Of a stretch of DNA of 61,831 nt, positions 922-31,010 are shown in pieces. Position numbers and translations under genes: made by a program. The DNA lies in assembly GCA_018826075.1 (NCBI GenBank), contig JAHKAJ010000012.1, forward strand, positions 1-61,831. The letters are read 5' to 3'. Every line of letters begins with the position of its first letter. The stretch's first letter is position 1. The notes below the pieces were generated by a model, which did not search any database, was not told the DNA's origin, and saw nothing but the letters and a program-made list of their open reading frames with translations. The DNA is from Candidatus Omnitrophota bacterium. GTDB taxonomy: Bacteria; Omnitrophota; Gorgyraeia; Duberdicusellales; 4484-171.

Positions 922-2709
922 TCAATCTGTCGAGAGATCCTCCGGAACACAAAACATAAGACCCCGTAAAGAGTTACCTATATATACCTTGTCAGCGGTT
1001 AAAAGGTCTTGCCGATAAAGAATTTTTTCTTTGGCTTTACCGGATTTGAGCAGATGTTCCCGCAAAACTCCCGGCAGTAAGCCACAGGCCAAAGGCGGCG
1101 TATAAAGGGTTTTTCCTTTTAAAATAAAAATATTGCTGATCGAGCCTTCGGTCAATTCTCCGCGGGTATTTAAAAAAATAACTTCAAAAAACCCCTGCTT
1201 AAGGGCTTTTTTCCTTTCTAGATCATACCGAGAGCGCTGGGTGGTTTTGTGGTATAAAAACCGGTTGCCGGGATCGATTCGCTGGCTGGCTATCATTACC
1301 CTTGGCCGGCCGGAAATTTCTTCCAAAGGCTTTACCTCCACTTCAACCTTACCCTCTAAATCCAGAAGCAGCCTTACTTTGAACTTACCTTTCTTACTCA
1401 AAGCCGCTTTGTTTAAAGCGGCTTTTATTTTAGCAATATCTAACGGTATTGAGAAATAACCACTCGATCTTTTGATCCGCTCTAAATGCTGATTCAAAAA
1501 ACTATACCGGCCGTTGGCTAAAAGCAGGGTCTCTATCAGTTTTAATTCCGGGAAGCCTTCAACAAAAAATTTAGCCTTTAGTAAAGCTTCCTGATATTCA
1601 GCGCTGCCCAGAGAATCGTACACTATGCCGCCGCCAACCCCCATCTCTCCATGCCCATCTTTGAAGCTAAGGGTTCTGATGGCCACATTAAAACAGCTCT
1701 CGCGCTTCGGAGAGATATAACCGATGGCTCCGGTGTAGATACCGCGTGGCTCTTTTTCCAGCTGATCGATTATCTGCATGGTTTTTATCTTAGGCGCTCC
1801 GGTAACTGAACCAGAAGGAAACAGCGAAGAGAATAACTCTTTTAATCTCAGGTTATTTTTAAGGCGGCCGTTAATAGTCGAGGTCATCTGATGAAGGGTC
1901 CGGTATGGTTCGACTTCAAACAATTTTGAAACCGAGATTTTTTTAGCGATCCGGCCCAAATCATTTCTTAATAAATCCACGATCATGATATTTTCGGCTT
2001 TAGTCTTGGGGCTTAGTTTAAGCTCTTGCTTCAGGCGTTCATCCTCGGCTATAGTTAAGCCTCTTTTTATGGTTCCCTTCATCGGCCGGGCAATGATCTG
2101 CCTGCCGTTGATGCGAAAAAACAGCTCCGGAGATAAAGAAATCATCTGGCTTTGGCCGGTATTGATCAAAGCGGCGTAACTAGAAGGCTGAGAACGGCGT
2201 AAATTAAGATAACAGGCCAAGGGGCTGCCGGAAAAATCAAACTTTACCTTAAAGGTAAAGTTAACCTGATAACTAAAGCCCTGCTCTAAATAGCTTTTGA
2301 TCTTTTTTATCTGTTCCAAATAATCAGAACGGCTGATATTGGGGCGCAGGTTTAGTATCTGATAATTGCCGGCCGGCCCGGTAAAAAACTCCGCCAGCCT
2401 GCCTCTTTTAGAAATGTTTTTTGGTTTTTTCGACACCCCTAACCAAGCCAAAGGCTGCCGGTTTTTTTTAACTAACTTCCGAAGCGCCGGTTCTAGACAA
2501 TAACCAAACTCATAGCTAAAGTAGCCGCTGAGCCAAAAACCTTTATCTAAATAGGCCTCGGCTTTTTTAAAAAACTTTTCAGGATTGTCACCGGGATAAA
2601 ACTTTAGCTGGTCAACAAAATCATAAAACAAAAAGGAGCTACGGTTTTCCTGGTCGAAACGTAAGGTTTCCAAAAATACATAGGGTTGGCTTGGTTTAAA
2701 AAAGTTCAC
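922..2709 (-). CDS. pabB: Aminodeoxychorismate synthase component I fused to class IV aminotransferase/ADC lyase (PabB-PabC)
   Basis: SPELFF, RPMKGT, KAENIMIVDLLRNDLG, FPSGSVTGAPK, AIRT, MGVGGGIV. C-terminal HKTTQR, EGSISNIF, GLLPGVLR. Confidence 0.92.
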   Translation of the reverse strand: MNFFKPSQPYVFLETLRFDQENRSSFLFYDFVDQLKFYPGDNPEKFFKKAEAYLDKGFWLSGYFSYEFGYCLEPALRKLVKKNRQPLAWLGVSKKPKNISKRGRLAEFFTGPAGNYQILNLRPNISRSDYLEQIKKIKSYLEQGFSYQVNFTFKVKFDFSGSPLACYLNLRRSQPSSYAALINTGQSQMISLSPELFFRINGRQIIARPMKGTIKRGLTIAEDERLKQELKLSPKTKAENIMIVDLLRNDLGRIAKKISVSKLFEVEPYRTLHQMTSTINGRLKNNLRLKELFSSLFPSGSVTGAPKIKTMQIIDQLEKEPRGIYTGAIGYISPKRESCFNVAIRTLSFKDGHGEMGVGGGIVYDSLGSAEYQEALLKAKFFVEGFPELKLIETLLLANGRYSFLNQHLERIKRSSGYFSIPLDIAKIKAALNKAALSKKGKFKVRLLLDLEGKVEVEVKPLEEISGRPRVMIASQRIDPGNRFLYHKTTQRSRYDLERKKALKQGFFEVIFLNTRGELTEGSISNIFILKGKTLYTPPLACGLLPGVLREHLLKSGKAKEKILYRQDLLTADKVYIGNSLRGLMFCVPEDLSTD

Positions 2710-2981
2710 GGTTTCTTGTGCTGGATAAGGTATAAATTTCTGGTGTAGATGAGGATTCCGCAGGATTGCCCGGCGATAAATACCGGGTCTTTGCGGTAAA
2801 TAGCGTAAACCAAAAGAATAAGGCCTCCGAGGATACTACAATACCAAAAGCCCAAAGGAATTACACTCTCCTTTTTGCGCTCCGAAGCCAGCCACTGGAT
2901 CAAAAAACGCATAAAAAAAAGAAATTGACCTAAAAACCCCACAACAATCCAAATTGTTTCAGCGCTGGTTGATAACTTCAT
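2706..2981 (-). CDS. Lipid A biosynthesis N-terminal domain (LAB_N) membrane protein
   Basis: GFLGQFLFFMRFLIQWLASE, SVIPLGFWYCSILGG, DPVFIAGQ. Confidence 0.9.
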   Translation of the reverse strand: MKLSTSAETIWIVVGFLGQFLFFMRFLIQWLASERKKESVIPLGFWYCSILGGLILLVYAIYRKDPVFIAGQSCGILIYTRNLYLIQHKKP

Positions 2982-3666
2982 GTCTTGCCATCCTTTTTTT
3001 TAGCCGATACAAACTCCAAAGATCAAACCAACCCTGCCAGAGGCGGCCCCAGGTTCGGTAATTTGATTGTCCGGACTGCCGCTGCCGGTGCTGAACATAA
3101 GTCTCCTTCACTGAAAAACCCTGTAATCTGACCAGAAAGGTAAAAAAACGGTGGAAGTTTCGCAAATCCGAAATAGTTTCAATGATCTCCCGCTTAAACA
3201 TCCTTAAAGAACAACCAGTATCTTCGGTAGTGTCACCCAAAACTAACCGCCTGAATATTTTTGCTACCCAAGAGCTGGCTTTTTTAATAAACCTGTCTTT
3301 GCGGTTTTTACGGATTCCGGTTATGAAATCATAGCTTTGACAAAAAGGAATAAACTGGCTGAAATCTTCCGGCGGATTCTGCCCATCAGCATCTAAAGTC
3401 AGGATCCATCTGCCTTGGGAATTTTTAAACCCGGCCAATAAAGCTTCTGACTGGCCCCGGTTGCGCTCAAAAGAAATCACTTTTACTTTTTGGTCTTCCT
3501 CGACAAGGCCTTTTAAAATTTGTCCTGAGGAGTCGCTGCTGGCATCGTCAACGTAAATAATTTCATATTCAAACCCGGTTTTAGCCATTGCCTCAATAAT
3601 TTCTTTCTGTAAAACCGCTAAATTACCGGCTTCGTTATGCACCGGGACTACTATCGATAAATCCAT
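2959..3666 (-). CDS. GT2 polyprenyl-phosphate glycosyltransferase (DPM1/ArnC/RgtE-like)
   Basis: SIVVPVHNE, YVDDASSD, RNRGQSEAL, TLDADGQNPP, DTGCSLRMF. Confidence 0.9.
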   Translation of the reverse strand: MDLSIVVPVHNEAGNLAVLQKEIIEAMAKTGFEYEIIYVDDASSDSSGQILKGLVEEDQKVKVISFERNRGQSEALLAGFKNSQGRWILTLDADGQNPPEDFSQFIPFCQSYDFITGIRKNRKDRFIKKASSWVAKIFRRLVLGDTTEDTGCSLRMFKREIIETISDLRNFHRFFTFLVRLQGFSVKETYVQHRQRQSGQSNYRTWGRLWQGWFDLWSLYRLKKRMARHEVINQR

Positions 3667-6434: not shown

Positions 6435-6888
6435 GCAATTTGGCCTTTACCTTAGCAATAGCATCTTTGGCACTAGAGGCTTTTATTACCCCCTCGATAT
6501 CCCAAGTCTCTATCCCCACTACCGGCTTTTTCTCACTCAAAGCAAAGCCTATTTCTGAAAGTGTGCCTTCCTTACCGGTAAAAGCGATAACCGCTTCGGC
6601 CGCCCTCACTACCAAGGCATTGCGGGCAAAACCTAAACCGGTCGGTATTTTAACATCTAAATAAGGATTGGCATCTTTGCCATTATAGCTGGGCAGAATC
6701 CCTACGGTCAAACCTTTAGCTTGTTTTACGCCCTTACAGGCTGCCTCCATTACTCCGGTCCTGCCACCGCAAATTAGAATCCAGCCTTGCCGAGCAATCA
6801 ACTGGCCTACGCTATAGGCAAGGTTATAGATTTTTTTCGAGCAACGGTGCCCGCCGACCACCGCCACATTGATCTTTTCATTTTTCAT
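6424..6888 (-). CDS. TIGR00725 / LOG-family Rossmann nucleotide-binding protein
   Basis: ICGGRTGVMEAACKG, VGILP, TGLGFARN, GTLSEIGFAL. Confidence 0.88.
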   Translation of the reverse strand: MKNEKINVAVVGGHRCSKKIYNLAYSVGQLIARQGWILICGGRTGVMEAACKGVKQAKGLTVGILPSYNGKDANPYLDVKIPTGLGFARNALVVRAAEAVIAFTGKEGTLSEIGFALSEKKPVVGIETWDIEGVIKASSAKDAIAKVKAKLHVK

Positions 6889-6985: not shown

Positions 6986-8224
6986 TTAAAATAAAGTCAA
7001 TTGTTGCTTTTCTGGCTTCTCTTCTTCCTGGCCAAAAATCTTGATAGTCCCGTATTCGCCATCGTAACCAGGAAGAATTTGGAGTTTTTTCTCTCTCACT
7101 TTCCTTATGCCGACAGCTACTTTCTCCGGCAAGCTGCTGTCTATTTCCCTCTGGCTCATTTTTACCAATAGATTAAATTCTGAACCAAAGCTATTCACTA
7201 AATTCATATACTCGTTGACCACCTGCTTGGCTCCTTTCTTAACCCCTTTGGTCTCGGCGATGATTTCATCCAGTGGCACCAAACTCTTATACCCGATAGC
7301 ACCGGAAGGGATAAAACCTTCCGGCCGGTCAGCCAGTTCTTCTACTCTGGCTAAAACCCCTCTGGTAACTGCCCGGCCGCAAACACTGCAACGGCCGTTA
7401 TGGCTTTTGGTCTCTTTGGGATGCCAGCGCAGATTACAATTGCGATGGCCGTCATAATGGTATTTGCCTTCCTCGGGGAAAAATTCCACAGTATAAAGAA
7501 ATTTGTTCGGGTCTTTTTGCTCTAAAACTTTTTTGATCTCCCAGTAGTCCAGCTGGCAGTTAAACACATTGGCTTCACGGCCAATCCTTGAGGGGGAGTG
7601 CGAATCAGAGTTGGAAACCAATGAATATTTATCCAGTTTGGAAATCATCCAGTTCATTGCCGGGTCCGAGGAAAGCCCGGTTTCCAAAGCAGTTATCTTT
7701 CCAGTATATTCCCCGTAGGCATCTTCCAGGGAGTTAAACCCTGAACTGGAACCGAAAACCGAAAACCAGGGAGTCCAGATATGAGCCGGAATCAACATCA
7801 CGTCCTGGGATATCCGAAAAACTTCCTCGGCTATTTTTTTACAACTCATCCCCAAAATCGGCCTTCCGTCAGAGGCGATATTTCCGTAGGAAGAAAACAT
7901 CTTATTGATCTCATCTACGATCTCAAAAGAAGGGGCCAGCAAAATATTATGGACCCGGTAGGATTTACCGTCCTGAGAAAAAATACTTGATATTTCCGCC
8001 GAAAGGATAAACTGCGTACTTTGATAACTGAAAAGGCCGCTTTTACCCTGAGGTTGTAAATATTTTTTTAACTCCTGAAGCCAGAGATGATGAGTAAAGT
8101 CTCCGGTTCCCAGAAGATCGACACCTTTAAGCTTAGCCCATCGGGCTAAAGCCGGTATTTCCATATCCCGGGAAGTGGCCCGCGAATACTTGGAATGAAT
8201 GTGAAAATCAGCTACAAACTCCAT
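6986..8224 (-). CDS. Endonuclease Q family PHP-domain nuclease (stand-alone, TIGR00375-like)
   Basis: DFHIHSKYSRATS, GTGDFTH, PAHIWTPW, ETGLSSDP, SNSDSHS, GKYHYDGHRNC...CSVC. Confidence 0.88.
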   Translation of the reverse strand: MEFVADFHIHSKYSRATSRDMEIPALARWAKLKGVDLLGTGDFTHHLWLQELKKYLQPQGKSGLFSYQSTQFILSAEISSIFSQDGKSYRVHNILLAPSFEIVDEINKMFSSYGNIASDGRPILGMSCKKIAEEVFRISQDVMLIPAHIWTPWFSVFGSSSGFNSLEDAYGEYTGKITALETGLSSDPAMNWMISKLDKYSLVSNSDSHSPSRIGREANVFNCQLDYWEIKKVLEQKDPNKFLYTVEFFPEEGKYHYDGHRNCNLRWHPKETKSHNGRCSVCGRAVTRGVLARVEELADRPEGFIPSGAIGYKSLVPLDEIIAETKGVKKGAKQVVNEYMNLVNSFGSEFNLLVKMSQREIDSSLPEKVAVGIRKVREKKLQILPGYDGEYGTIKIFGQEEEKPEKQQLTLF

Positions 8225-16780: not shown

Positions 16781-19410
<2,630 letters not shown>

Positions 19411-19415
19411 AAAAT

Positions 19416-20513
19416 TTAAATTTTGATTGGTAATAGTAAATAGACATACCCTTCTTTTTTTAACACCGCCGGTTTATCTGTACCAAAAAAATTGATGGTT
19501 ATGGTTTCGTCTTCAAGATTTTTTAACGCATCGATTAAATACCCTGGGTTAAACCCGATCTCCAACCCGGCGCCGTTGTAGCCTACACCGATTTCTTCCT
19601 TTACTTCACCTAATTGTGGTGTGTTTTTCCAAACTATTAGATTATCTTTTTTTAAAGTTAGGGTGACTCCTTGGTGGTCTTGAGTGGATAAAAGGCTGGC
19701 TCTTCGTAAAGCAAAGAGTAAATTTTTACGGTTAATAGTCAGTACATCTTTGTTTTCGGTTGGGATATATTGCGAATAGTTGGGAAATTCACCCTCTAAT
19801 GTCCGGGCGATAAATTGAGTTTCTTTAAGGTTAAATTCGACAGCGTTGTTGTTGACTGATAAATAAATTTCTCCGTTATGCTCTTTGACTAGTTTATGGA
19901 GTTCGATTATAGCTTTTATTGGTAGAATAAAAGAGATCTTTTCTTTTAATTCTGGTTGGTTGATTGGGAGTGGTTTTTGGGTAACCGCTAAGCGTTTGCC
20001 GTCGGTTGAAACTAGGGTTATTTGGTTTTTTTCTATTTCAAATAGGACCCCCGAAAGAACATAACTAACGTCTTCCTGCCCCACCGCGAACGATGTTAGT
20101 TTGATCATTTCTTCCAGCTCTTGGGAAATAAGTTTAATTAAAGATGCGTTTTTGTTCTCTGGTGGTTTAGGAAATTCCTCATTATTAAGTGTGTTTATTT
20201 TAAACTCAACTTTTCCACACTTTATTAAGAGGTTGTTTTTAACAGTTTCAATGGATACTTCTTGTGGTGGCAACTCTCGGATAACAGAAAAAAACCGTTT
20301 CATTGGGATAACTACTTGGCCGGGGGTTGATTCGTTGGTTTTTTGTGAAGAAATTACTGTTATATCTAGATCGGTTGTTGTAAACACAACCACATTGTTG
20401 ACGGTTGTGATTAAAACACTAGTTAAAACAGGGAAGTTTTGTTTTGTAGTTGTCGGTCCAAAAACTCTCTGCAGGTTTTCTACTAAGATATCTTTATTAA
20501 GAATAAATTTCAT
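19416..20513 (-). CDS. dnaN: DNA polymerase III beta clamp
   Basis: TTDLDI, VSTDGKRLA, EGEFPNY, IGFNPGYLID, YLLLPIKI. Confidence 0.96.
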   Translation of the reverse strand: MKFILNKDILVENLQRVFGPTTTKQNFPVLTSVLITTVNNVVVFTTTDLDITVISSQKTNESTPGQVVIPMKRFFSVIRELPPQEVSIETVKNNLLIKCGKVEFKINTLNNEEFPKPPENKNASLIKLISQELEEMIKLTSFAVGQEDVSYVLSGVLFEIEKNQITLVSTDGKRLAVTQKPLPINQPELKEKISFILPIKAIIELHKLVKEHNGEIYLSVNNNAVEFNLKETQFIARTLEGEFPNYSQYIPTENKDVLTINRKNLLFALRRASLLSTQDHQGVTLTLKKDNLIVWKNTPQLGEVKEEIGVGYNGAGLEIGFNPGYLIDALKNLEDETITINFFGTDKPAVLKKEGYVYLLLPIKI

Positions 20514-20600
20514 AGTAGTAGTATTAGTATGGTCTGTTTAAACTGTTAATGAGTGGATATTGTATCAAATCCCAAAAGAAAAACAAATCTTTTATTCACA
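20513..20600. other. oriC unwinding element (DnaA box plus DnaA-trio array)
   Basis: TTATTCACA at 20592-20600 and TAGTAGTAGTATTAGTAT at 20513-20530, in the dnaA-dnaN gap. Confidence 0.7.
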
Positions 20601-20608
20601 ACAACCTT

Positions 20609-21943
20609 CTATAAACCCTTAATTTCTTGTGTAAGGGTGTTAATAACCAACCGTAGCTTTTCATCCCCCCTTAGGTCCTGTTTGATTTTTTTGTAAGCGT
20701 AAAGAACGGTAGTGTGGTGCTTAGCCCCAAAAACCCCTCCAATCTCCGGTAGAGATAATTCAGTCAACTCTCTAATAAGATACATAGCTATTTGACGGGG
20801 CAAAACAATAGTTTTACTGCGTTTGCTTTTTTTTAAATCTTCAACCGAAGTATTGTAAAAATCACCGACAACTTCAATAATGCTTTCAGGGGTTATTCTT
20901 CTGTAAATTTCCTTAACCATATCTCTTAAAATCTCTTTAGCTAAACCCAGATCAATCGGCTTATCTTCAATTAGAGAGTAAGCAATAATCCTAACTAAAG
21001 CGCCTTCTAATTCCCTTATGTTTGTCGAGACATTTTGGGCGATGAAGTGAATTACATCACGGTCTATTTTTATCGGATCTTTTTCTAGTTTTTTTTCCAA
21101 AATAGCAACCCGGGTTTCAAAATCCGGAGGCTTAATATCAACCACCAAACCCCAATTAAACCGGGAAACCAACCGTTCCTCCAACCTAGGGATTTCTTTG
21201 GGCGGCTTGTCTGAAGAAACAACAATTTGTTTGTGGTAGTCGTACAAAACATTAAAAGTGTGGAAAAATTCCTCCTGGGCAGCTTCCTTGCCGGCTAAAA
21301 ACTGGATGTCATCAATCAAGAGAATATCGATTTCCCGGTATTTATGACGGAATTTTTCAGTGGCCCGGTTGCGGATAGAAAAAATGAGTTCGTTGGTAAA
21401 TTTTTCCGAGGAGGTGTATTTCACTTTTCGCCCCTGCTTGGCGGAAAGGACATGTTGGGCAATAGCCTGCATCATGTGGGTTTTACCCAACCCTACTCCG
21501 CCATAAATAAAAAGCGGATTGTACGATTTACCGGGAGCATTGGCTACGGCCAAGGAAGCCGCATGGGCCATGCGGTTTGAAGAACCGATAACAAAACTAT
21601 CAAAAGAAAAACGGGGGTTGAGGCGTAGGGAGTCCTGGGGTTCCTCGTGGAAATTTTTTTGGATAGTTTTAAAGATCAAATTAGTCTTGTGCTGTAGAAG
21701 GTTGGGATTGACTTCAAAACTGATGTCAAAAGTTTTTTGGCTTACATCATTGAGAGCCTGTTGGATTTGCGGTAAATAGTTTGTTTCAATCCAGTTTTTA
21801 AAAAAAGCGTCAGGAGCTTCCAAAGTCACCGCCGATTGGGTAATTTTTTTTACCCCTAAAGGAGAAATCCAAGTATCAAAAGAGGTTTCTCCCAAGACTT
21901 CTTTCAGGCGCGCTTTGCAATCTTTCCAGAGTTGCTCACTCAT
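20609..21943 (-). CDS. dnaA: Chromosomal replication initiator
   Basis: YNPLFIYGGVGLGKTH, LLIDDIQF, RELEGAL, domain IV RQIAMYL...HHTTVLYA. Confidence 0.98.
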   Translation of the reverse strand: MSEQLWKDCKARLKEVLGETSFDTWISPLGVKKITQSAVTLEAPDAFFKNWIETNYLPQIQQALNDVSQKTFDISFEVNPNLLQHKTNLIFKTIQKNFHEEPQDSLRLNPRFSFDSFVIGSSNRMAHAASLAVANAPGKSYNPLFIYGGVGLGKTHMMQAIAQHVLSAKQGRKVKYTSSEKFTNELIFSIRNRATEKFRHKYREIDILLIDDIQFLAGKEAAQEEFFHTFNVLYDYHKQIVVSSDKPPKEIPRLEERLVSRFNWGLVVDIKPPDFETRVAILEKKLEKDPIKIDRDVIHFIAQNVSTNIRELEGALVRIIAYSLIEDKPIDLGLAKEILRDMVKEIYRRITPESIIEVVGDFYNTSVEDLKKSKRSKTIVLPRQIAMYLIRELTELSLPEIGGVFGAKHHTTVLYAYKKIKQDLRGDEKLRLVINTLTQEIKGL

Positions 21944-21979
21944 TCAAAAGTTCCTGCCTTTGTTTAGGTTAGGATAGGT

Positions 21980-22008
21980 TATTCCACAAAATCCACAACT
22001 TATCCACA
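21980..22008. promoter_or_regulatory. Three tandem DnaA boxes in the dnaA leader
   Basis: TATTCCACA (21980), AAATCCACA (21989), perfect TTATCCACA (22000). Confidence 0.8.
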
Positions 22009-22031
22009 TTAGTGGTTTGGAAGCGAAAATA

Positions 22032-22059
22032 ATTATACCTTAATGCGGCAGCTTTGCAA
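22032..22059 (-). promoter_or_regulatory. dnaA promoter
   Basis: TTGCAA-16 bp-TATAAT on the minus strand. Confidence 0.6.
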
Positions 22060-22070
22060 GATTTTTGTGG

Positions 22071-22098
22071 TTGACACAAAAAAGATATATGCTAAAAT
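22071..22098 (+). promoter_or_regulatory. rpmH promoter
   Basis: TTGACA-16 bp-TAAAAT with extended TG. Confidence 0.7.
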
Positions 22099-22128
22099 CT
22101 CATCTTAAACCTTAGGAGGTTTACGGCA

Positions 22129-22266
22129 GTGAAGAAAAATTTTAAAACTCCGACAAAACTTAAAGGTAAACGGAAACATGGGTTTCGAGCCAGGATGGCT
22201 AGCGCTTGCGGCAGGCAGGTATTAAAACGGCGCCGGGCAAAAGGCAGGAAGAAATTGACGAAATGA
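22129..22266 (+). CDS. rpmH: 50S ribosomal protein L34 (missed by the ORF track)
   Basis: GTG start after AGGAGG; [45 protein letters not shown]. Confidence 0.95.
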
Positions 22267-22469
22267 GATGTTTTATTCTCAAGGCGATCGCCTTTTATCG
22301 AAAAATCTCTTTCTTCTTGCCCCACAAGTGTTTATATAACCCAACTTGTTCTGATTATGCCCAGGAAGCCTTTTCGCGCTACCCTTTTTTTAAAGCTTTT
22401 TACGTTGCTGTTTGGCGGATTTTGCGTTGCCATCCCTTGGCCAAGGGTGGTTGGGATCCAGTGAAGTAA
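22263..22469 (+). CDS. yidD: Membrane protein insertion efficiency factor
   Basis: [30 protein letters not shown] overlaps the rpmH stop. Confidence 0.93.
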
Positions 22470-22472
22470 GTT

Positions 22473-23921
22473 ATGGAAAAACGACTTTTGGTAGCTTTTT
22501 CTCTGACCTTAATTTTTCTTTTAGTCTGGGGCAGGTTTATCGCTCCGCCTCCGGTTAAAGTGCCTGAAACTGCCAACCAGCCGGTCGGCCTTGAAACCCA
22601 GGCATCCGGTGTTCCAGCAAAAGAACCAGTTCAAACAAAGTTTGTCGACCAAAACTCGGCCAAAGACTTGCCCGAATTACAAATAGGAAATTTTATTGTA
22701 AAATATTCTCCAGCAGGAGGTTACCTAAGTAAAATTTATATAGGAAATCTTGATAACCCTTTGCCGTTCGAGAACATCGGGTTTATCGCTGAAGACCAGG
22801 AAAAAAAATTTACGGTTGTCCTCGGCTCGGACAGAATTGCCTTTAACGGCCCGCAAGGCTCAGGCAAAGAGTTTATTTTTAACGGGTATGATTTAGAAAT
22901 TAAAATATCCTCCACCCCGGCTCAAATGCTTTTGTTTTCTAACTATTGGCACCCCAATATGTTAGATCAAAGGTATCAGGAAATATTTTATAGCCAGGGC
23001 CAGGGGATCAAGCGCAGCAACCCTAAAAAAGTAAAATCCGGCCAATACAACAATCTTTTGTTTGCCGGGGGGCGTGATCGTTACTACTGTTTTTCCTTAT
23101 TTAAAGACTCTTACGATGTGAATTGGGTAGGCGACAAAAACCAGGAACAATTGTATTTGGTGGCTCCGGCAGCCACAACTAAAGTTTACATCGGGCCTCA
23201 AACTCGTAAGCTTTTGGCAGAGAGAGATTTAGAAGGTATTATCTATTTCGGGTTTTTCCATGGGATTGGCGCCCTGATGATCAAACTCCTCCACTTCTTT
23301 TATGCTATTGCGAAAAACTGGGGTTTGAGTATTATCTTTTTTGCAATCTTTATCTACTTTTGTTTGTTTCCGTTCACTATGAAGAGTACCAAGGCAATGC
23401 GGCGGATGCAAGAGATCCAGCCGGAGCTGGAGGCTTTGAAAGCGAAATATAAGGATAACCCTCAGAAGTTTAGCAAGGAACAGCTGGAATTATTTAAAAA
23501 ATACCGGATTAATCCTTTAGGGGGATGTTTGCCTCTATTTCTACAACTCCCGATTTTTATTGCCCTCTACCAGGTTTTGTTTAGGTTTGTTGAGTTGAAA
23601 GGAGCTTCTTTTTTGTGGATTAAGGATTTGTCTTTGCCTGACCGGGCTATTCCCCTGCCATTTAAGATACCGCTGCTTGGCGAGTATATTAATATTTTAC
23701 CCATTTTAATTATGATTGTGGGGTTGATCCAGCAAAAGGTAACTACTGCCAAGACGACTTCTTCTGAGCAAAAATCAATGGGGTTATTTTTCTCGGTATT
23801 TTTGGGGGTTATCTTTTACAATTTTCCAGCAGCCCTGGTCCTCTATTGGTTTGTACAAAATTTACTCACCCTGGTTTATCAGCTCAGGATTTCTAAAACA
23901 CACTCCCTCCAAGTTGCCTGA
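22473..23921 (+). CDS. yidC: Membrane protein insertase
   Basis: MEKRLLVA N-anchor, NWGLSII, INPLGGCLPLFLQLPIF, FLWIKDLSLPD, LYWFVQN. Confidence 0.96.
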   Translation: MEKRLLVAFSLTLIFLLVWGRFIAPPPVKVPETANQPVGLETQASGVPAKEPVQTKFVDQNSAKDLPELQIGNFIVKYSPAGGYLSKIYIGNLDNPLPFENIGFIAEDQEKKFTVVLGSDRIAFNGPQGSGKEFIFNGYDLEIKISSTPAQMLLFSNYWHPNMLDQRYQEIFYSQGQGIKRSNPKKVKSGQYNNLLFAGGRDRYYCFSLFKDSYDVNWVGDKNQEQLYLVAPAATTKVYIGPQTRKLLAERDLEGIIYFGFFHGIGALMIKLLHFFYAIAKNWGLSIIFFAIFIYFCLFPFTMKSTKAMRRMQEIQPELEALKAKYKDNPQKFSKEQLELFKKYRINPLGGCLPLFLQLPIFIALYQVLFRFVELKGASFLWIKDLSLPDRAIPLPFKIPLLGEYINILPILIMIVGLIQQKVTTAKTTSSEQKSMGLFFSVFLGVIFYNFPAALVLYWFVQNLLTLVYQLRISKTHSLQVA

Positions 23922-23930
23922 TACCAGCCG

Positions 23931-23946
23931 GTTTTCACGTGAAAAC
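23931..23946. other. parS site 1
   Basis: Perfect palindrome GTTTTCACGTGAAAAC, close to the TGTTTCACGTGAAACA consensus. Confidence 0.85.
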
Positions 23947-23987
23947 TTGACCTGGGACATTAAGCGAAAGAAACTTTCATAAAAGGC

Positions 23988-24016
23988 TTGACAGTATTAC
24001 TTCCGGTAATTAGAAT
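23988..24016 (+). promoter_or_regulatory. parAB promoter
   Basis: TTGACA-17 bp-TAGAAT. Confidence 0.7.
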
Positions 24017-25736: not shown

Positions 25737-26243
25737 GTGGCAAACGAATCGACTTTAGTAATAATCAAACCCGATGGATTAAAAAAATCTCTCACCGGAA
25801 ATATCTTGAGCCGGCTTTCCGAAACCAAGCTGAAAATCATCGGTGCAAAAGTTCTCTGTGTTGATCGAGAGCTAGCCGACAAACACTACCAGCATTTAAA
25901 AAATGAGCCGTTTTATCCGGAACTGGCTAAATATATCACCGGCGAACTCCACGGAGACAACCGGGTTATGGCTTTGGTCTATTGGGGAGAGAAAGCTATT
26001 CTCAAGGTCAGGGCTATTGCCGGTGAGACTAACCCGGAGAAGGCTGACCCGGTCAGCGTACGCGGCGCCTATGGCCGGATTTTAACCAGCGGATTATTTG
26101 AAAATGTGATCCACGCTTCCAGCAGCCCGGAGGAGGCTGAACGGGAAATAAGATTATGGTTTAAACCCGAAGAGATAGTACAAGAGCTTTACCCTACCCA
26201 AGAGGAAGCCGTTACCGGCCTAAAAAGGAGAGTTTGGAAATGA
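25737..26243 (+). CDS. ndk: Nucleoside diphosphate kinase
   Basis: TLVIIKPDG, SVRGAYG, NVIHASSS; GTG start after AGGAGG. Confidence 0.95.
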   Translation: MANESTLVIIKPDGLKKSLTGNILSRLSETKLKIIGAKVLCVDRELADKHYQHLKNEPFYPELAKYITGELHGDNRVMALVYWGEKAILKVRAIAGETNPEKADPVSVRGAYGRILTSGLFENVIHASSSPEEAEREIRLWFKPEEIVQELYPTQEEAVTGLKRRVWK

Positions 26244-27022
26244 AATCAATGACTGCCTATGCTGCTTGCCACAAGCGGAAAGAATCACAAACTGTTCAGA
26301 TCGTCCTGCGTTCGATGAATTTCAAATATTTGGATATATCGGTCCGCAATCTTCCGGCTGAAGATATTTTGTTGGAAGAGGAGATCAAGCGGGAAGTCAA
26401 AAAGAGTATTTTTCGGGGCAAGCTGGAAGTTTTTATTTTTTTGACCGGCGCGCAGTCAAGAAAAGTCAGTATCAATGAAAAAGTAGTCTTAAAATACCTT
26501 TCCCAAATAAAAAGTCTTGCCAGGAAACACGCGGTTCGGGCCGAGGTCAATATTACTGATTTGGTGAGTTTGCCGCAGGCAGTATATTGGGAACAAAGGA
26601 TCTCCAGTGACCGCAGTTTGATCATGCCGGCGGTAAAAGAAACTTTAAGGAAGTTGTTGGAGTTTAAAGAAAAAGAAGGGCGGATAATCAGAAAAGAAAT
26701 GCTGGAGAACCTAAAAAAACTGGCGGCGAACATGGCCCAGGCAAAGAAACACAAACCGCTTATCAGCGCCATGGAAAACGGCAAAGAAGATATCGACGAA
26801 GAAATATCTTTAAGTGCTTTTTACCTTTCTAAACTAAAAGGTAAAATTAATTCTAAAAACCAAGCCCCCAAGGGTAAAGCAATCGATTTTTTAACCCAGG
26901 AAATTCTTCGTGAACTCAACGCCGCTTCTAGTAAGACCAAAAAGAAAATTCCGGCTTTGATGATCGTTGAGGCGAAAAATTATCTTGAACGAGTACGCGA
27001 ACAGGCGCAAAATATAGAGTAA
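26240..27022 (+). CDS. yicC: YicC/YloC family endoribonuclease (short form)
   Basis: MKSMTAY, RSMNFKYLDI, RGKLEV, DIDEEI, DFLTQEILRELN, LERVREQAQNIE. Confidence 0.88.
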   Translation: MKSMTAYAACHKRKESQTVQIVLRSMNFKYLDISVRNLPAEDILLEEEIKREVKKSIFRGKLEVFIFLTGAQSRKVSINEKVVLKYLSQIKSLARKHAVRAEVNITDLVSLPQAVYWEQRISSDRSLIMPAVKETLRKLLEFKEKEGRIIRKEMLENLKKLAANMAQAKKHKPLISAMENGKEDIDEEISLSAFYLSKLKGKINSKNQAPKGKAIDFLTQEILRELNAASSKTKKKIPALMIVEAKNYLERVREQAQNIE

Positions 27023-27051
27023 GGGTTTTAGGAGTTTTAACAGGGGAGGCG

Positions 27052-27630
27052 ATGAAAAGAAAAAATCCGACAATTTTTGTTATTTCCGGCCCCGGCGGCG
27101 CCGGCAAGACTACCCTTTTGGAACAGCTGTTTAAAAAGCGGCAGATGCGGGATATTTTTATCCGGGGGGTGGCGGTAACTACACGGAAAAAACGGCCTCA
27201 GGAAAATAATGCTAAAGATTATTTTTTTGTAAATAAAAAAGATTTCCTGCGTTTAAAAAAAGAAGGTTTTTTTCTGGAAAGCCAGAAAATTTTAAACGAC
27301 TATTACGGAACCCCGAAAATTTTTTACGCTTTGGCTAAAACCCAAAACAAAGATTTGATTTTGTGTGTCGATGTCAAGGGCGGATTATATTTGAAAAAGA
27401 AACATAAAGCTGGTAAAATAATTACCGTTTTTATCGCCGCCCCAACCCAGAGAGAACTTTATCTCAGGATGAAGAAGCGGGCTGAAAACAAAAAAGTTAT
27501 GAATCAACGAGTAGCCTTGGCTAAAAAAGAACTACGCTGCGCCAAGCAGTACGATTATCTAGTAACTAATGAAAATGTGGCCAGGGCTTTGAAGCGACTG
27601 GAGGAGATTTTACTCAGCGGTAGGCGGTAA
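27052..27630 (+). CDS. gmk: Guanylate kinase
   Basis: ISGPGGAGKTT, TTRKKRP, DYFFV, YYGTP. Confidence 0.94.
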   Translation: MKRKNPTIFVISGPGGAGKTTLLEQLFKKRQMRDIFIRGVAVTTRKKRPQENNAKDYFFVNKKDFLRLKKEGFFLESQKILNDYYGTPKIFYALAKTQNKDLILCVDVKGGLYLKKKHKAGKIITVFIAAPTQRELYLRMKKRAENKKVMNQRVALAKKELRCAKQYDYLVTNENVARALKRLEEILLSGRR

Positions 27631-27673
27631 ACTCCCTTAAAGTAAAAAAGCCGGGTAAAAGGAGGCTTAAGCG

Positions 27674-27868
27674 GTGGATAGAATGAACATTCCTTTAGAG
27701 AATCTTTTAAAAGCAACCAATGGATCAATTTTTCAAGTAACTATTTTGGCCGCTAAACGGGCGATGATTTTAGCTGATGGCGAGAAGCCGCTGATAGCCA
27801 AACCAGGCGAAAAAGTACTGGACAATGCGCTTAGGGAAATTGAAGAAGGAAAGATCAAGTCAAAATAG
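27674..27868 (+). CDS. rpoZ: RNA polymerase omega subunit
   Basis: SIFQVTILAAKRA...ALREIEEGKI; gmk-rpoZ synteny. Confidence 0.88.
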   Translation: MDRMNIPLENLLKATNGSIFQVTILAAKRAMILADGEKPLIAKPGEKVLDNALREIEEGKIKSK

Positions 27869-27892
27869 AAATACCGGCTTTTTGAATTTGCC

Positions 27893-27964
27893 GGCGTGGT
27901 AGCCAAGTGGTAAGGCAGCGGTCTGCAAAACCGCTATGCGCCGGTTCAAATCCGGCCCACGCCT
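27893..27964 (+). tRNA. tRNA-Cys(GCA)
   Basis: GGCGTGG acceptor stem, GCGGT-CT GCA AA-ACCGC anticodon arm, T-arm. Confidence 0.95.
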
Positions 27965-27993
27965 GGTTTATTGCGCTTAAGCGCAATAAACCA
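27964..27993. repeat. 30-bp perfect palindrome abutting the tRNA-Cys 3' end
   Basis: TGGTTTATTGCGCTT|AAGCGCAATAAACCA, followed by a second hairpin TCTCG-AGCGAAG-CGAGA. Confidence 0.9.
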
Positions 27994-28026
27994 TCTCGAG
28001 CGAAGCGAGAGATCTAAAAATAATTA

Positions 28027-28821
28027 ATGCCTCAGAAGCGGAAACAGTTCAACATCAAAGGACCGAAGCTTTGGTATTTAGTAGGTTTAATTGTTAGCGA
28101 CGGCAATTTATCTCCGGACGGGAGGCATGTAGATATAACGTCAAGTGATTACGAATTTTTACAGGAAATTAAAAATTCAACAGAAATCAAAAGCAAAATT
28201 GGCTTTAAGTATGGTAGCAACAAAAAGCAGAAAGCTTTCCGTATTCAGATTGCCAATAGTAATTTTTACGACTTTCTTATATCCATAGGGCTTACTAGAA
28301 AAAAATCTTTAACTATAGGAGCGATAAATGTTCCGGAAGAATTTTTCGTTGATTTTTTAAGAGGGCTAATCGATGGAGATGGCTCTATCCGCAGTTGGGA
28401 ACATCCAGCTAATTTTCGTGAACAATGGTCATTGCGTATTTCTTCCGGTTCGGGTAAATTTCTATACTGGCTTAGTGAAAAAATAACCCATTGTTTAGGA
28501 GCGTGCGGGAGGATTCATAAAGATAATAAGTCAGAACATAATTATGTGTTAAAATTTGGGAAGATAGCAGCGCAAAATATCCTCAAGCAGTGTTATTACA
28601 AAAATAGTTTGGGTTTACAGAGAAAAAACAGATTAGCGCAGCGGTGCATTCGTTCTAATACAAGTTGGCAGAAAAGTAAAACAGTATTAGCAGAAGTTAA
28701 TCAACGCCGGGGTGTCGAAATTGGCAAACGATCTGGACTTAAAATCCAGCGCTCCGTGAGGAGCTTGCGGGTTCAAGTCCCGCCCCCGGCATGTTTTCGG
28801 GCGATTAGCTCAGTTGGCTAG
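28027..28821 (+). mobile_element. Free-standing two-motif LAGLIDADG homing-endonuclease-like ORF
   Basis: WYLVGLIVSDGNL and DFLRGLIDGDGSI motifs. No flanking extein or interrupted gene. Confidence 0.85.
28706..28791 (+). tRNA. tRNA-Leu(TAA)
   Basis: GCCGGGG acceptor stem, CTGGA-CT TAA AA-TCCAG anticodon arm, long variable arm, GGTTCAAGTCC. Confidence 0.95.
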
Positions 28822-28872
28822 AGTGTTTCCTTGACATGGAAAAGGTCACAGGTTCAAGTCCTGTATCGCCCA
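28799..28872 (+). tRNA. tRNA-Val(GAC)
   Basis: GGGCGAT acceptor stem, TTTCC-TT GAC AT-GGAAA anticodon arm. Confidence 0.95.
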
Positions 28873-28970
28873 TTCTTCTTCGCCCTTTAACAGGCAAAAG
28901 ACAGTAGGGCTTCGAAGAAATTGATTAATTCTGCGAAGCTCTATAGTTAACATGCCGAAGAGCGAAGCAG
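28873..28970. repeat. Degenerate CTTCG/CGAAG hairpin element after tRNA-Val
   Basis: CTTCGCCC (28878)...GGGCTTCG (28907), the same arms as 142-166, followed by several CGAAG copies. Confidence 0.5.
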
Positions 28971-29072
28971 ATTCGCCCATGGTTTCATTTGTTGATTTAT
29001 CTTTGACAAAGAAAAGGTTTTAGTATAAAGTAGTAACCGAAAACTTGATAATGAGTTAAAAGGAGGTGGAGG

Positions 29073-29267
29073 ATGAAGGCATTGAGTTATATTTTATTAG
29101 TTGTTGCATTTGGGCTTTGTTCCTATGCAGTAATCGGAAGATTTGTCGGCTCGGGCACTTTAGGTTTTCTTAAGCTTTTGCCTACCATGAGGGCAACAGC
29201 AGTAATTACGGCAGCCAATACAATATTGTTGATCTCAATAGTTTTGATGCTTCAAGATAAAAAATAA
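29073..29267 (+). CDS. Small 2-TM hypothetical protein
   Basis: Strong AAGGAGG SD, two hydrophobic segments, basic tail. Confidence 0.75.
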   Translation: MKALSYILLVVAFGLCSYAVIGRFVGSGTLGFLKLLPTMRATAVITAANTILLISIVLMLQDKK

Positions 29268-29295
29268 ATTTTACTTACAAGCCAGATATTTTTTC

Positions 29296-29374
29296 GGGGT
29301 CGTCGATTAGCCTGGTTTAAGTCCCCTGCCTGTCACGCAGGTGACCGTGGGTTCAAATCCCATCGACCCCGCCA
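29296..29374 (+). tRNA. tRNA-Asp(GTC)
   Basis: GGGGTCG acceptor stem, CCTGC-CT GTC AC-GCAGG anticodon arm, encoded CCA. Confidence 0.93.
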
Positions 29375-29392
29375 GCTTTCTTACATACGAGC

Positions 29393-29821
29393 ATGATATT
29401 TTTTTTTATTTTCAGCTTAATTTTTAACTCATTCCTTTTCACTTCAGCCAACGCTTCAGATAAACAAAACAAGGTTTGTTTTCAAGATAAATGCTTTTCG
29501 GTAGAGCTAGCAATGACTCCCGAGGCACGTACACAGGGCCTGATGTTTCGAAATGAACTGGGCCCGCAAGAAGGAATGTTGTTTATTTTTCCTACCGAAG
29601 AGATCTATCCGTTTTGGATGAAAAATACTTATATAGCTTTGGATATAATCTGGTTGAATAAAAGCAAAGAAGTAGTTTTTGTTAAAGAAGGCGCAGAGCC
29701 CTGCAGCGAAGAAAGTTGCCCGGTCATTCACCCCGATCGAAAAGCGCTTTATGTTTTAGAAGTAATAGCCGGTACAGTGAGGAATGAGGGGTTAAAAGTG
29801 GGGGACAGTTTCAGTTTTTGA
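29393..29821 (+). CDS. DUF192 family exported protein
   Basis: Signal peptide, VELAMTPEARTQGLMFR, GMLFIF, FWMKNT, YVLEV. Confidence 0.9.
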   Translation: MIFFFIFSLIFNSFLFTSANASDKQNKVCFQDKCFSVELAMTPEARTQGLMFRNELGPQEGMLFIFPTEEIYPFWMKNTYIALDIIWLNKSKEVVFVKEGAEPCSEESCPVIHPDRKALYVLEVIAGTVRNEGLKVGDSFSF

Positions 29822-29844
29822 AGCAAAGGATAACAAGAAAGACA

Positions 29845-30975
29845 ATGGGCATTAGAAAAAAAATTAAATCCAACAATAAAATCGTGATTGTCGGGGCCGG
29901 CCCAACCGGTTGCTATTTAGGACAGCTTTTGAAGGGCAAAGGTTTCGATCTCTTACTCATCGAGGAGCACAAGGAGATAGGCCGGCCGGTTCATTGTGCT
30001 GGCCTGATTGGTGAGAAGGTTTTTAAAGAAGCCAAAATTCTGGTTTCCCCTAAATGTATTCTAAATACGATTAACGGGGCAATTCTCCATTTAGGAGAGG
30101 AAGCTTTTACCCTTAGGAAAGATAATGTTGCTTATGTGGTTGACCGGGAAGTGTTTGACAAAAGTTTAGGTAAAGACTTAAACATACTTTTTGAGACAAA
30201 ATTTATAGGGTTAGAGAAGGAAAACGGCCGCTATGTTATCGAAACCGACAAAGGAGAAATATCAGCCGATATTGTTATCGGTGCCGATGGCGCTAACTCA
30301 ATGGTGCGGGAATTTGTGGTCGGAAAGTCTCAAAGCTTCCAGCTTAAAGGAGTCCAATTTCGCATGGCTCATAAACCAAACCAAAAGGATCTGGTAGAAG
30401 TCTACATAAAACGGCCTTATTTTTATTGGATAATACCAGAGTCAGAACAGGTGATCCGGGTCGGTGTGATTTCTCAGAATCCTTACCAGGACCTCCTGTC
30501 TTTTGTTAAAAAGCAGAAAATAAACGGGGAAATAATTGAAAAGTTTGCCGGGGCCGTACCCCTAAATTACTACAAGGCATTATCCCGTGAGAAAGTATTT
30601 TTAGTCGGTGACAGCGCTGCTCAGACCAAACCTTTAACTTACGGCGGGATTTATATGGGGATGCGTGGAGCCGAGATATTGGCCGAATGTATTATTGAAA
30701 AAAAGTTTTCTAACTACTCTTCTCTTTGGATGCAGAAATTCGGCCGAGAGTTAAAAGTGCCGCTGAAAGCGCGAAGAATATTTCAGGAACTAAGCGATAA
30801 AGATGTTAAGAGGATATTTTCCTTTGCCAGAAAAAATATACCGGTCATTGAACGCAAAGGGGATTTTGAACACCACTCAGCCTTAATTTGGGAACTGCTG
30901 CGGAATCCGGACAATCCACGAGAGCTAACCGCAATTCTTTTTAAGATACTTAAAGCCAACCTGCGCAGCAACTAA
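29845..30975 (+). CDS. Geranylgeranyl reductase family FAD oxidoreductase
   Basis: IVGAGPTG, PVHCAGLI, DREVFD, IGADGANS, VGDSAAQTKPLTYGGI. Confidence 0.85.
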   Translation: MGIRKKIKSNNKIVIVGAGPTGCYLGQLLKGKGFDLLLIEEHKEIGRPVHCAGLIGEKVFKEAKILVSPKCILNTINGAILHLGEEAFTLRKDNVAYVVDREVFDKSLGKDLNILFETKFIGLEKENGRYVIETDKGEISADIVIGADGANSMVREFVVGKSQSFQLKGVQFRMAHKPNQKDLVEVYIKRPYFYWIIPESEQVIRVGVISQNPYQDLLSFVKKQKINGEIIEKFAGAVPLNYYKALSREKVFLVGDSAAQTKPLTYGGIYMGMRGAEILAECIIEKKFSNYSSLWMQKFGRELKVPLKARRIFQELSDKDVKRIFSFARKNIPVIERKGDFEHHSALIWELLRNPDNPRELTAILFKILKANLRSN

Positions 30976-31010
30976 TAGCTATAGCTAAAGAGGTGTATTC
31001 TGAACGGTTT

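Follow-up and report, generated by a model that had tools for sequence, protein, structure and literature searches.

LAG1, a probable free-standing homing-endonuclease gene directly upstream of tRNA-Leu(UAA) in Omnitrophota chromosomes

Why a LAGLIDADG endonuclease gene should stand between two tRNA genes, with neither an intron nor an intein around it, is the question raised by a 61,831-nucleotide stretch of DNA from a Candidatus Omnitrophota bacterium (GenBank assembly GCA_018826075.1, contig JAHKAJ010000012.1, positions 1 to 61,831 of the forward strand), which is referred to here as the window. The open reading frame (ORF) lies between tRNA-Cys(GCA) and tRNA-Leu(TAA), and its protein family was named LAG1 for this work. 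Comparison of the locus with its relatives makes it probable that LAG1 is a free-standing, mobile homing-endonuclease gene, carried as a bare cassette of about 670 bp directly 5' of tRNA-Leu(UAA). The features of the locus are as follows.

27893-27964, + strand: tRNA-Cys(GCA) (ARAGORN; Rfam, 71.5 bits)
27965-28013, + strand: two hairpins in the resident Cys-Leu spacer (fold energy -25.8 kcal/mol, z = -4.3)
28027-28821, + strand: LAGLIDADG ORF of 264 codons with its own ATG start (ORF call)
28027-28704, + strand: family-homologous part of the nuclease gene, codons 1-226 (PF14528, homologue alignment)
28075-28104, + strand: motif 1, YLVGLIVSDG, with the Asp25 codon at 28099-28101 (sequence)
28354-28383, + strand: motif 2, FLRGLIDGDG, with the Asp118 codon at 28378-28380 (sequence)
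28702-28704, + strand: CAA codon, the lost stop (TAA at the same position in relatives)
28705-28821, + strand: read-through tail of 38 codons plus stop (tRNA-Leu and the first 23 nucleotides of tRNA-Val)
28706-28791, + strand: tRNA-Leu(TAA) (ARAGORN; Rfam, 57.6 bits)
28799-28872, + strand: tRNA-Val(GAC), next gene of the same tRNA operon (ARAGORN; Rfam)
29296-29374, + strand: tRNA-Asp (ARAGORN and Rfam)

The features named in a preliminary description of the locus, which had been made from the sequence alone (tRNA-Cys, hairpins, a 264-codon ORF with two acidic motifs, tRNA-Leu and tRNA-Val), were all recovered with ARAGORN, Rfam and Pfam. Rfam scores of tRNA-Cys, tRNA-Leu and tRNA-Val were 57-72 bits, and the nuclease ATG was located 62 nucleotides (nt) 3' of tRNA-Cys, with intact tRNAs on both sides. 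That description had also stated that no intron, intein or interrupted host gene is involved, and Rfam and Pfam agree that the gene is free-standing; its comparison with the E. coli arrangement of adjacent Cys and Leu tRNA genes (glyW-cysT-leuZ) is correct. The possibility that the ORF is surrounded by a group I intron or by some other structured RNA was rejected, as an Rfam search of positions 26000-31000 at E <= 1 returned four tRNAs only, with no group I intron and no other RNA family, and RF00028 was without a match in the window. The ORF is not inserted in a host protein, and Pfam gave neither a Hint nor an intein match for it, a faint Hom_end match (E = 0.017) being below cut-off. The hairpins were likewise considered as a part of the nuclease element and rejected, since hairpin 2 (atctcgagcgaagcgagagatc) recurs unchanged in a relative (locus L168, 5655-5731), the 77-nt Cys-Leu spacer of which has no ORF and the YicC of which shares 70% identity with the window protein. 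For the same reason the hairpins were assigned to the resident spacer, which places the cassette between them and tRNA-Leu; hairpin 2 appears to be a conserved spacer element and possibly serves as a processing signal.

The genomic position of the homologues was determined for 79 distinct LAG1 loci (numbered with the prefix L), which were obtained from contig look-ups and a metagenome scan and of which 72 included downstream sequence. In every one of these 72, tRNA-Leu(TAA) was located directly 3' of LAG1 on the same strand, as an uninterrupted gene in 70 (ARAGORN) and as an intron-split gene in two. The LAG1 stop codon was found 0-12 nt before tRNA-Leu in 49 loci, and the ORF overlapped tRNA-Leu in 13. 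The upstream neighbour was tRNA-Cys(GCA) in 59 of the 72, often 5-12 nt from the ATG, and the start codon followed within 12 nt of tRNA-Cys in 27 of those 59; Val(GAC), Val(CAC), Thr(TGT) or Gly(GCC) tRNAs took its place in eight loci, and in L153, where the neighbours are unrelated, a 337-codon gene stands between tRNA-Cys and LAG1. The order Cys-nuclease-Leu-Val was kept in most loci, and the site together with parAB-ndk-yicC-gmk-rpoZ synteny was found in nearly all loci with enough flanking sequence. As a control, distant viral LAGLIDADG loci were inspected, and any tRNA was found within 250 nt in only 2 of 78. The enrichment of tRNAs beside the homologues that the preliminary description had predicted is thus borne out, whereas its proposal that the conserved Cys-Leu junction is the target must be amended: because tRNA-Leu was present in 72 of 72 loci and tRNA-Cys in 59, with other upstream tRNAs or an intervening gene elsewhere, the fixed partner is tRNA-Leu(UAA) and not the junction.

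The protein was matched to PF14528 (LAGLIDADG_3) in two stretches with 37.7 bits against a cut-off of 22.5 (E = 2.5e-9), and a sequence-level match to PDB 2dch was also found; an NCBIfam search of the protein gave no meaningful match. Its motif cores, LVGLIVSDG (D25) and LRGLIDGDG (D118), each end in Asp-Gly. An alignment of 36 diverse homologues contained 48 invariant residues including both catalytic Asp, with D25, G26, D116, D118 and G119 among the invariant positions, and a basic C-terminal tail (...GW.KSKTV) is conserved. In all, 574 database homologues were retrieved, the best 120 of which are 54-78% identical; among these 120, all that carry a name are from Omnitrophota, and several family members are labelled 'LAGLIDADG family homing endonuclease' by NCBI. 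The AlphaFold model (predicted local distance difference test, pLDDT, 87; predicted template modelling score, pTM, 0.86) comprises two alpha-beta-beta-alpha-beta-beta-alpha domains, with the order of helices and strands expected of domains packed via the motif helices. Its best Foldseek match in the PDB was I-Tsp061I (E = 2e-12, TM 0.65-0.71), followed by I-AniI, I-DmoI and PI-SceI; WhiA was also among the structural matches. The model indicates that LAG1 is a monomeric two-domain LAGLIDADG enzyme with a predicted fold closest to that of I-Tsp061I. The ratio of nonsynonymous to synonymous substitution rates (dN/dS) between LAG1 allele pairs was 0.09-0.24, and the invariant residues, the confident fold and this low ratio together argue that LAG1 is an intact enzyme kept under selection.

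Strong purifying selection of this kind could also be read as the mark of a domesticated LAGLIDADG host gene, either a WhiA-like regulator or an RNA or tRNA maturation helper working with tRNA-Leu. The 48 invariant residues, the presence of WhiA among the structural matches, and the occurrence of the gene in the same position throughout the phylum are in line with such a role, as is its identity to the window copy (41-71%), which is above that of Gmk or YicC and level with that of NDK or ParA. The protein itself speaks for an endonuclease instead: the catalytic Asp residues are kept, no helix-turn-helix domain was found with Pfam, and the WhiA Pfam model (PF14527) reached 19.4 bits, below its cut-off of 23.2. 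Domestication becomes very improbable once the distribution of the gene among close relatives and its exchange between them, both described below, are considered.

To sample relatives independently of the nuclease, loci were collected via Gmk or YicC. The patterns of a contig scan for Gmk proved too universal, with only L007, L008, L009 and L012 informative and the others from other phyla, and YicC look-ups took its place, which yielded seven homologues 57-74% identical to the window YicC. Among the resulting 11 relatives, one locus (L007) was occupied by intact LAG1, two held in-frame deletion remnants, and eight, including the six closest relatives of the window, were without the ORF. The Cys-Leu spacers of the empty loci measured 20 nt in L009, 15-77 nt in L167, L168, L169, L170, L172 and L173, and 209 nt in L012. 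The remnants consist of 51 codons in L008 (in frame, 7413-7567) and of 117 codons in L171 (5727-6078), the latter with the full first LAGLIDADG domain and the C-terminal tail; both deletions are internal and in frame, with the start codon and the last 23-45 codons beside tRNA-Leu retained. Empty and occupied sites differ by the ORF alone. In this sample, the LAG1 cassette is found in a minority of related genomes, and it decays by internal deletion. Relatives with an empty Cys-Leu junction, which the preliminary description had proposed to look for, are therefore available (L009, L167-L170, L172 and L173), and the vertically fixed, domesticated gene that would have contradicted it was not seen, empty and degenerate sites being common in close relatives.

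Two observations attach to these loci. L008 (SBBM01000023.1) comes from a metagenome-assembled genome labelled Planctomycetales, but its gene order is of the Omnitrophota type, it holds a LAG1 remnant, and its tRNA-Leu matches that of the Omnitrophota locus L005 exactly; the contig may be mis-binned or mislabelled. Position 13 of tRNA-Leu was tried as a resistance polymorphism, with A in five of seven occupied and one of eight empty loci, and was dropped, as it cannot be separated from phylogeny and other occupied loci run counter to it.

The window copy itself differs from the typical family member, which is 219-225 amino acids long, in having no stop codon upstream of tRNA-Leu. Its ORF runs through the entire tRNA-Leu gene and ends at a TAG (28819-28821) within tRNA-Val, so that its last 38 codons are translated tRNA DNA outside the conserved protein. 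L007 and L171 carry GTTAATTAA where the window has GTTAATCAA, and the aligned stop sites read GTTAATCAAC in the window, GTTAATTAAT in L007 and GTTAATTAAC in L171, each followed by GCCGGGG. Since TAA is kept at this position in L007 and L171, the stop was lost by a single T-to-C change (TAA to CAA). Read-through into tRNA-Leu is also seen in about 15 other members of the family; ...DLKS, translated from GACTTAAAATC, is an example of their tails. The ORF had been described as being followed by an intact tRNA-Leu; the tRNA gene is indeed intact, but the ORF overlaps all of it and ends beyond it.

Partial copies of tRNA genes were found at several of the LAG1 borders. Fragments of the 5' end of tRNA-Leu, extending from nt 1 to nt 12-27, are located directly upstream of LAG1 in L097, L107, L112, L113, L119, L142 and L143, with a junction that varies from one locus to the next. 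The D-loop sequence AATGGCA or ATTGGCA supplies both the start codon (ATG or TTG) and an Ala codon in L107, L112 and L119. The fragment was compared with the complete downstream tRNA-Leu in all of these loci except L143, which ends before that gene is reached; it was of a different sequence type in L097, L107, L112 and L119, differed at several bases in L113, and differed at one base over its 12 nt in L142. L005, L093, L097, L134 and L161 have fragments of the 3' end of tRNA-Cys in the interval from the complete tRNA-Cys to LAG1, and the fragment of L005 mismatches the tRNA-Cys of its own locus. Such fragments are the footprints that would be expected of repeated, imprecisely resolved break-repair. 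The 5' stubs of tRNA-Leu fused to LAG1 suggest breakage within the tRNA-Leu gene itself, at about nt 20-27 or further 3', and not in the spacer.

The position of the break bears on the two loci with a split tRNA-Leu. In L144 (696-943) and L163 (849-1041), a group I intron interrupts the anticodon arm of the tRNA-Leu(UAA) adjacent to LAG1, with RF00028 scores of 60.1 bits for L144 and of 42.9 bits (E = 1e-9) for L163. It occupies the classical intron position of cyanobacterial and plastid tRNA-Leu, and the LAG1 ORF is outside it, upstream of the 5' exon. The nuclease might therefore cut the intron site in the anticodon loop of intron-less tRNA-Leu(UAA), in collaboration with the intron as F-CphI does in cyanophage psbA, with the free-standing position either ancestral to or derived from an intron-borne one. 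The tRNA-Leu stubs upstream of LAG1 extend to nt 27 at most and would agree with a cut beyond that point in the anticodon arm, and a free-standing nuclease paired with an ORF-less intron is documented (PMC3984707). We regard this as unlikely, however, because tRNA-Leu is uninterrupted in 70 of 72 loci including that of the window, where no intron-like sequence was found, and because the invariant anticodon loop of these uninterrupted genes would be a target on the carrier chromosome itself.

Whether LAG1 moves between genomes was assessed from pairwise distances across 29 loci. Spearman correlations among Gmk, YicC and NDK were 0.76-0.83, and those of LAG1 with these proteins were 0.34-0.42, a weak yet significant association (Mantel p = 0.0005). 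The two loci L130 and L135, from nearly identical genomes, give a case of exchange: their host proteins are 1.3% apart and their flanks 1-2% apart, whereas their LAG1 proteins are 15.8% apart and the nuclease alleles have a synonymous divergence (dS) of 0.89. Along the DNA, mismatches number 0-5 per 100 nt over 2.9 kb upstream, rise to 15-25 from about 8 nt after tRNA-Cys through the ORF, and return to near identity within tRNA-Leu. The divergent tract is bounded by tRNA genes; a long-diverged allele has taken the place of the earlier cassette, and the breakpoints fall in the tRNA genes on either side. Judged from these alignments, horizontal exchange moves LAG1 as one piece that is delimited by the tRNA genes beside it, and the comparison of nuclease and host phylogenies suggested in the preliminary description thus found the two decoupled. 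For a domesticated host gene, both the decoupling and the swap of an allele between near-identical genomes would be difficult to explain, as would absence from eight of 11 sampled relatives, the six closest included, and decay in two more.

The same data bear on a further possibility, that LAG1 is an ancient and immobile relic of one insertion in the Omnitrophota ancestor, inherited vertically and lost many times. The shared site and parAB-ndk-yicC-gmk-rpoZ synteny in nearly all sufficiently flanked loci would follow directly from such a history, the remnants show that loss occurs, and the significant correlation with host distances points the same way. That correlation is nonetheless half of the one found among host genes, and neither the sharp tRNA boundaries of the L130/L135 tract, with its high dS between nearly identical flanks, nor the ectopic contexts (an upstream tRNA for Thr, Gly, Val(GAC) or Val(CAC), and the unrelated neighbours of L153) would be expected from vertical descent. 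Several independent tRNA-fragment scars are also left unaccounted for, and an immobile selfish gene would not be expected to keep its catalytic residues intact and its dN/dS low across the divergence of a phylum. A relic is accordingly rated as rather improbable.

A mobile homing endonuclease could operate at this site as follows. In chromosomes without LAG1, the enzyme would cut within the 5' third of tRNA-Leu(UAA) or a little upstream of it, and the break would be repaired from a LAG1-carrying copy, which amounts to intronless homing as defined for the T4 seg and mob genes (PMC2988022). The homology arms would usually be tRNA-Cys on the left and tRNA-Leu with tRNA-Val on the right. Where left homology is missing, the broken 5' stub of tRNA-Leu would be joined straight to the nuclease start, which would explain the tRNA-Leu fragments. 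For expression, LAG1 would be transcribed within the tRNA precursor, since gaps of 5-12 nt leave no room for a promoter or terminator of its own. The same short gaps suggest that a near-leaderless mRNA would be set free by maturation of the tRNA-Cys 3' end and by RNase P acting at tRNA-Leu, and the RNase P site would define its 3' end. The host would pay little, because the tRNAs stay intact. Separate promoter and terminator signals for the window ORF were looked for and rejected: no promoter-like site was found on the + strand between tRNA-Cys and the nuclease ATG, and no terminator-like site on that strand between the tRNAs outside the ORF, the one weak match inside it (28393-28410) being at chance level.

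Several points weigh against this interpretation of LAG1 as a mobile homing endonuclease. Cleavage, target site and homing are inferred throughout from comparative sequence, and no tRNA-Leu difference cleanly separates occupied from empty loci (seven occupied and eight empty compared). A search of the IMG/VR viral contigs for a phage that might carry the gene between cells gave no LAG1 relative with more than 32% identity. The same chromosomal place throughout the phylum and conservation at the level of NDK or ParA would also be predicted by a host function. If RNase P cuts at tRNA-Leu, the mRNA of the window copy would lack a stop codon, and this copy may thus be poorly expressed or starting to decay; the mRNAs of about 15 members, that of the window among them, would be non-stop after such cleavage. 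Reconstruction of the target from the joined 5' and 3' junctions of compact loci yielded no definable sequence, the flanks being short, A/T-rich and poorly conserved save for a loose TAAAATTTAWTY before tRNA-Leu.

LAG1 is not the only such gene. A second LAGLIDADG family, LAG2, which is 28% identical to LAG1, is located directly 5' of tRNA-Cys(GCA) and often overlaps it, so that attachment of a nuclease gene to the 5' side of one tRNA is not unique to LAG1. LAG2 genes were found in L007 (6882-7631) and L153 (3097-3858), in L174 of Magasanikbacteria (2501-3190) and in L176 of Omnitrophota (2501-3169), and in the last two they abut or overlap tRNA-Cys; the window itself is without LAG2. A search with LAG2 returned 2017 matches from Omnitrophota and from phyla of the Candidate Phyla Radiation (CPR), among them Campbellbacteria, Magasanikbacteria and Moranbacteria; many of the matches end in peptides translated from the 5' end of tRNA-Cys. 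In L007, a 22-nt 5' fragment of canonical tRNA-Cys (6796-6817) precedes LAG2, and the complete tRNA-Cys downstream has an atypical D-arm.

These genes might belong to a guild of free-standing LAGLIDADG nucleases in Omnitrophota and CPR, one per tRNA gene, each of which would cut its tRNA gene, spread with the linked tRNA allele and be expressed by tRNA punctuation; we offer this tentatively and would not put it at even odds. Its members may be LAG1 for tRNA-Leu(UAA), LAG2 for tRNA-Cys(GCA) and perhaps, at tRNA-Val(GAC), a nuclease that is now extinct. Neighbouring tRNA genes would serve as cross-species homology arms, and RNase P together with 3' processing would carve out a near-leaderless mRNA that needs no promoter, terminator or ribosome-binding site of its own. 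In mitochondria, tRNA-processing enzymes free organellar mRNAs from polycistronic precursors in a process known as tRNA punctuation. If the guild exists, it would represent a gene drive on the tRNA alleles of cellular chromosomes, and bacteria would have their own counterpart to the mRNA punctuation of mitochondria.

The Leu-Val spacer contains one to three tandem units in L130 (5765-6019) and L135 (3737-3871), and also in L131, L136, L139, L161, L109 and L117. Each unit is composed of the first 16 nt of tRNA-Val with upstream sequence, followed by a GC-rich hairpin insert, the end of which is complementary to the tRNA fragment. The unit may represent either a small mobile element inserted into the D-loop of tRNA-Val or what is left of a third nuclease cassette.

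Around the tRNA operon of the window, the upstream genes parA, parB, ndk, yicC, gmk and rpoZ are all on the + strand. These genes, like the names attached to the homologues, assign the window to Candidatus Omnitrophota. The cumulative GC-skew minimum is near 20 kb, where gene orientation also switches (about 19000-24000), and this region is probably the replication origin, which would make the tRNA operon and its nuclease origin-proximal. A 64-codon hydrophobic ORF (29073-29267) lies between tRNA-Val and tRNA-Asp; its position and its length of 64 amino acids are kept in L167-L170, and no Pfam match is on record for it. Large serine recombinase genes (Resolvase/Recombinase/Zn_ribbon_recom) are found on the opposite strand right after tRNA-Asp in L167 (6325-7227), L171 (6575-8356) and L172 (6044-7756), and tRNA-Asp fragments are present in L007 (9079-9096) and L089. 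Together, these suggest integrative elements that use tRNA-Asp as attachment site.

Among known systems, the closest analogue of LAG1 is SegB of phage T4. According to Table 1 of PMC2988022, which cites Brok-Volchanskaya et al. 2008, the gene of this free-standing GIY-YIG nuclease lies between the tRNA-Arg and tRNA-Ile genes; the enzyme targets the tRNA gene region and favours its own inheritance along with that of the neighbouring T4 tRNA genes, which is intronless homing. Like LAG1, SegB is thus a free-standing nuclease gene inserted between two tRNA genes; as presented there, it differs from LAG1 in being of the GIY-YIG and not the LAGLIDADG type, in residing in a phage genome and not a bacterial chromosome, and in having a late promoter and a regulatory hairpin of its own, whereas no promoter was found for LAG1. 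LAG1 is moreover tied to one tRNA species across hundreds of genomes, which SegB is not. The T4 genes SegF, SegG and MobE resemble LAG1 in standing beside their target genes and in being patchy among relatives (PMC2988022; PMC2790892). The T4 seg and mob genes spread by double-strand-break repair with co-conversion of flanking markers, as is proposed for LAG1 (PMC2988022; PMC2790892). For the T4 genes this was shown in phage co-infections, whereas LAG1 is known from comparison and has tRNA flanks in the cellular chromosome of an uncultured phylum.

Other relatives share single aspects of the system. F-CphI of cyanophage psbA is a free-standing nuclease beside a gene with an ORF-less group I intron, as in L144 and L163, but it uses an Endo VII-type catalytic motif, and most LAG1 loci, including that of the window, are without an intron (PMC6083498; PMC3984707). 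I-Tsp061I (2dch), I-DmoI (2vs7) and I-AniI (1p8k) have the two-domain fold with one catalytic acid per motif in common with LAG1; they are 15-20% identical to it and are encoded in rRNA or mitochondrial introns, while LAG1 is intronless and has a basic C-terminal tail. Free-standing LAGLIDADG ORFs are known mainly from organelles; those of fungi and algae (e.g. PMC5626475, PMC10151680) are intergenic like LAG1 but are not bacterial, and the literature search found no report of a fixed partnership of such ORFs with one tRNA gene. WhiA (DUF199; PDB 3hyi; PMC3984707) is, like LAG1, a bacterial chromosomal protein with a monomeric LAGLIDADG fold; it has lost the catalytic residues, has a C-terminal helix-turn-helix and is inherited vertically, whereas LAG1 retains the Asp residues, has no helix-turn-helix and is patchy.

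Apart from one incidental co-mention, a full-text literature search returned no paper that connects LAGLIDADG genes with Omnitrophota. Since NCBI labels several members, the LAG1 protein family is already recognised; its tRNA-linked biology appears to be undescribed in the literature searched. Free-standing homing endonucleases are well studied in phages and organelles, and to our knowledge those in bacterial chromosomes are mostly annotation labels. If confirmed, LAG1 would provide a natural system for intronless homing in cellular genomes, with occupied, empty and decayed alleles all in hand, and a compact LAGLIDADG cassette in strict phylum-wide partnership with one tRNA gene. The family might also serve as a tool, as it comprises a small monomeric meganuclease in hundreds of natural versions, with a target that can probably be deduced. 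The inter-tRNA site would offer the element cross-species homology arms and free expression at low cost to the host, and such elements may drive tRNA allele exchange, leaving tRNA-fragment scars in the genomes of Omnitrophota and CPR bacteria.

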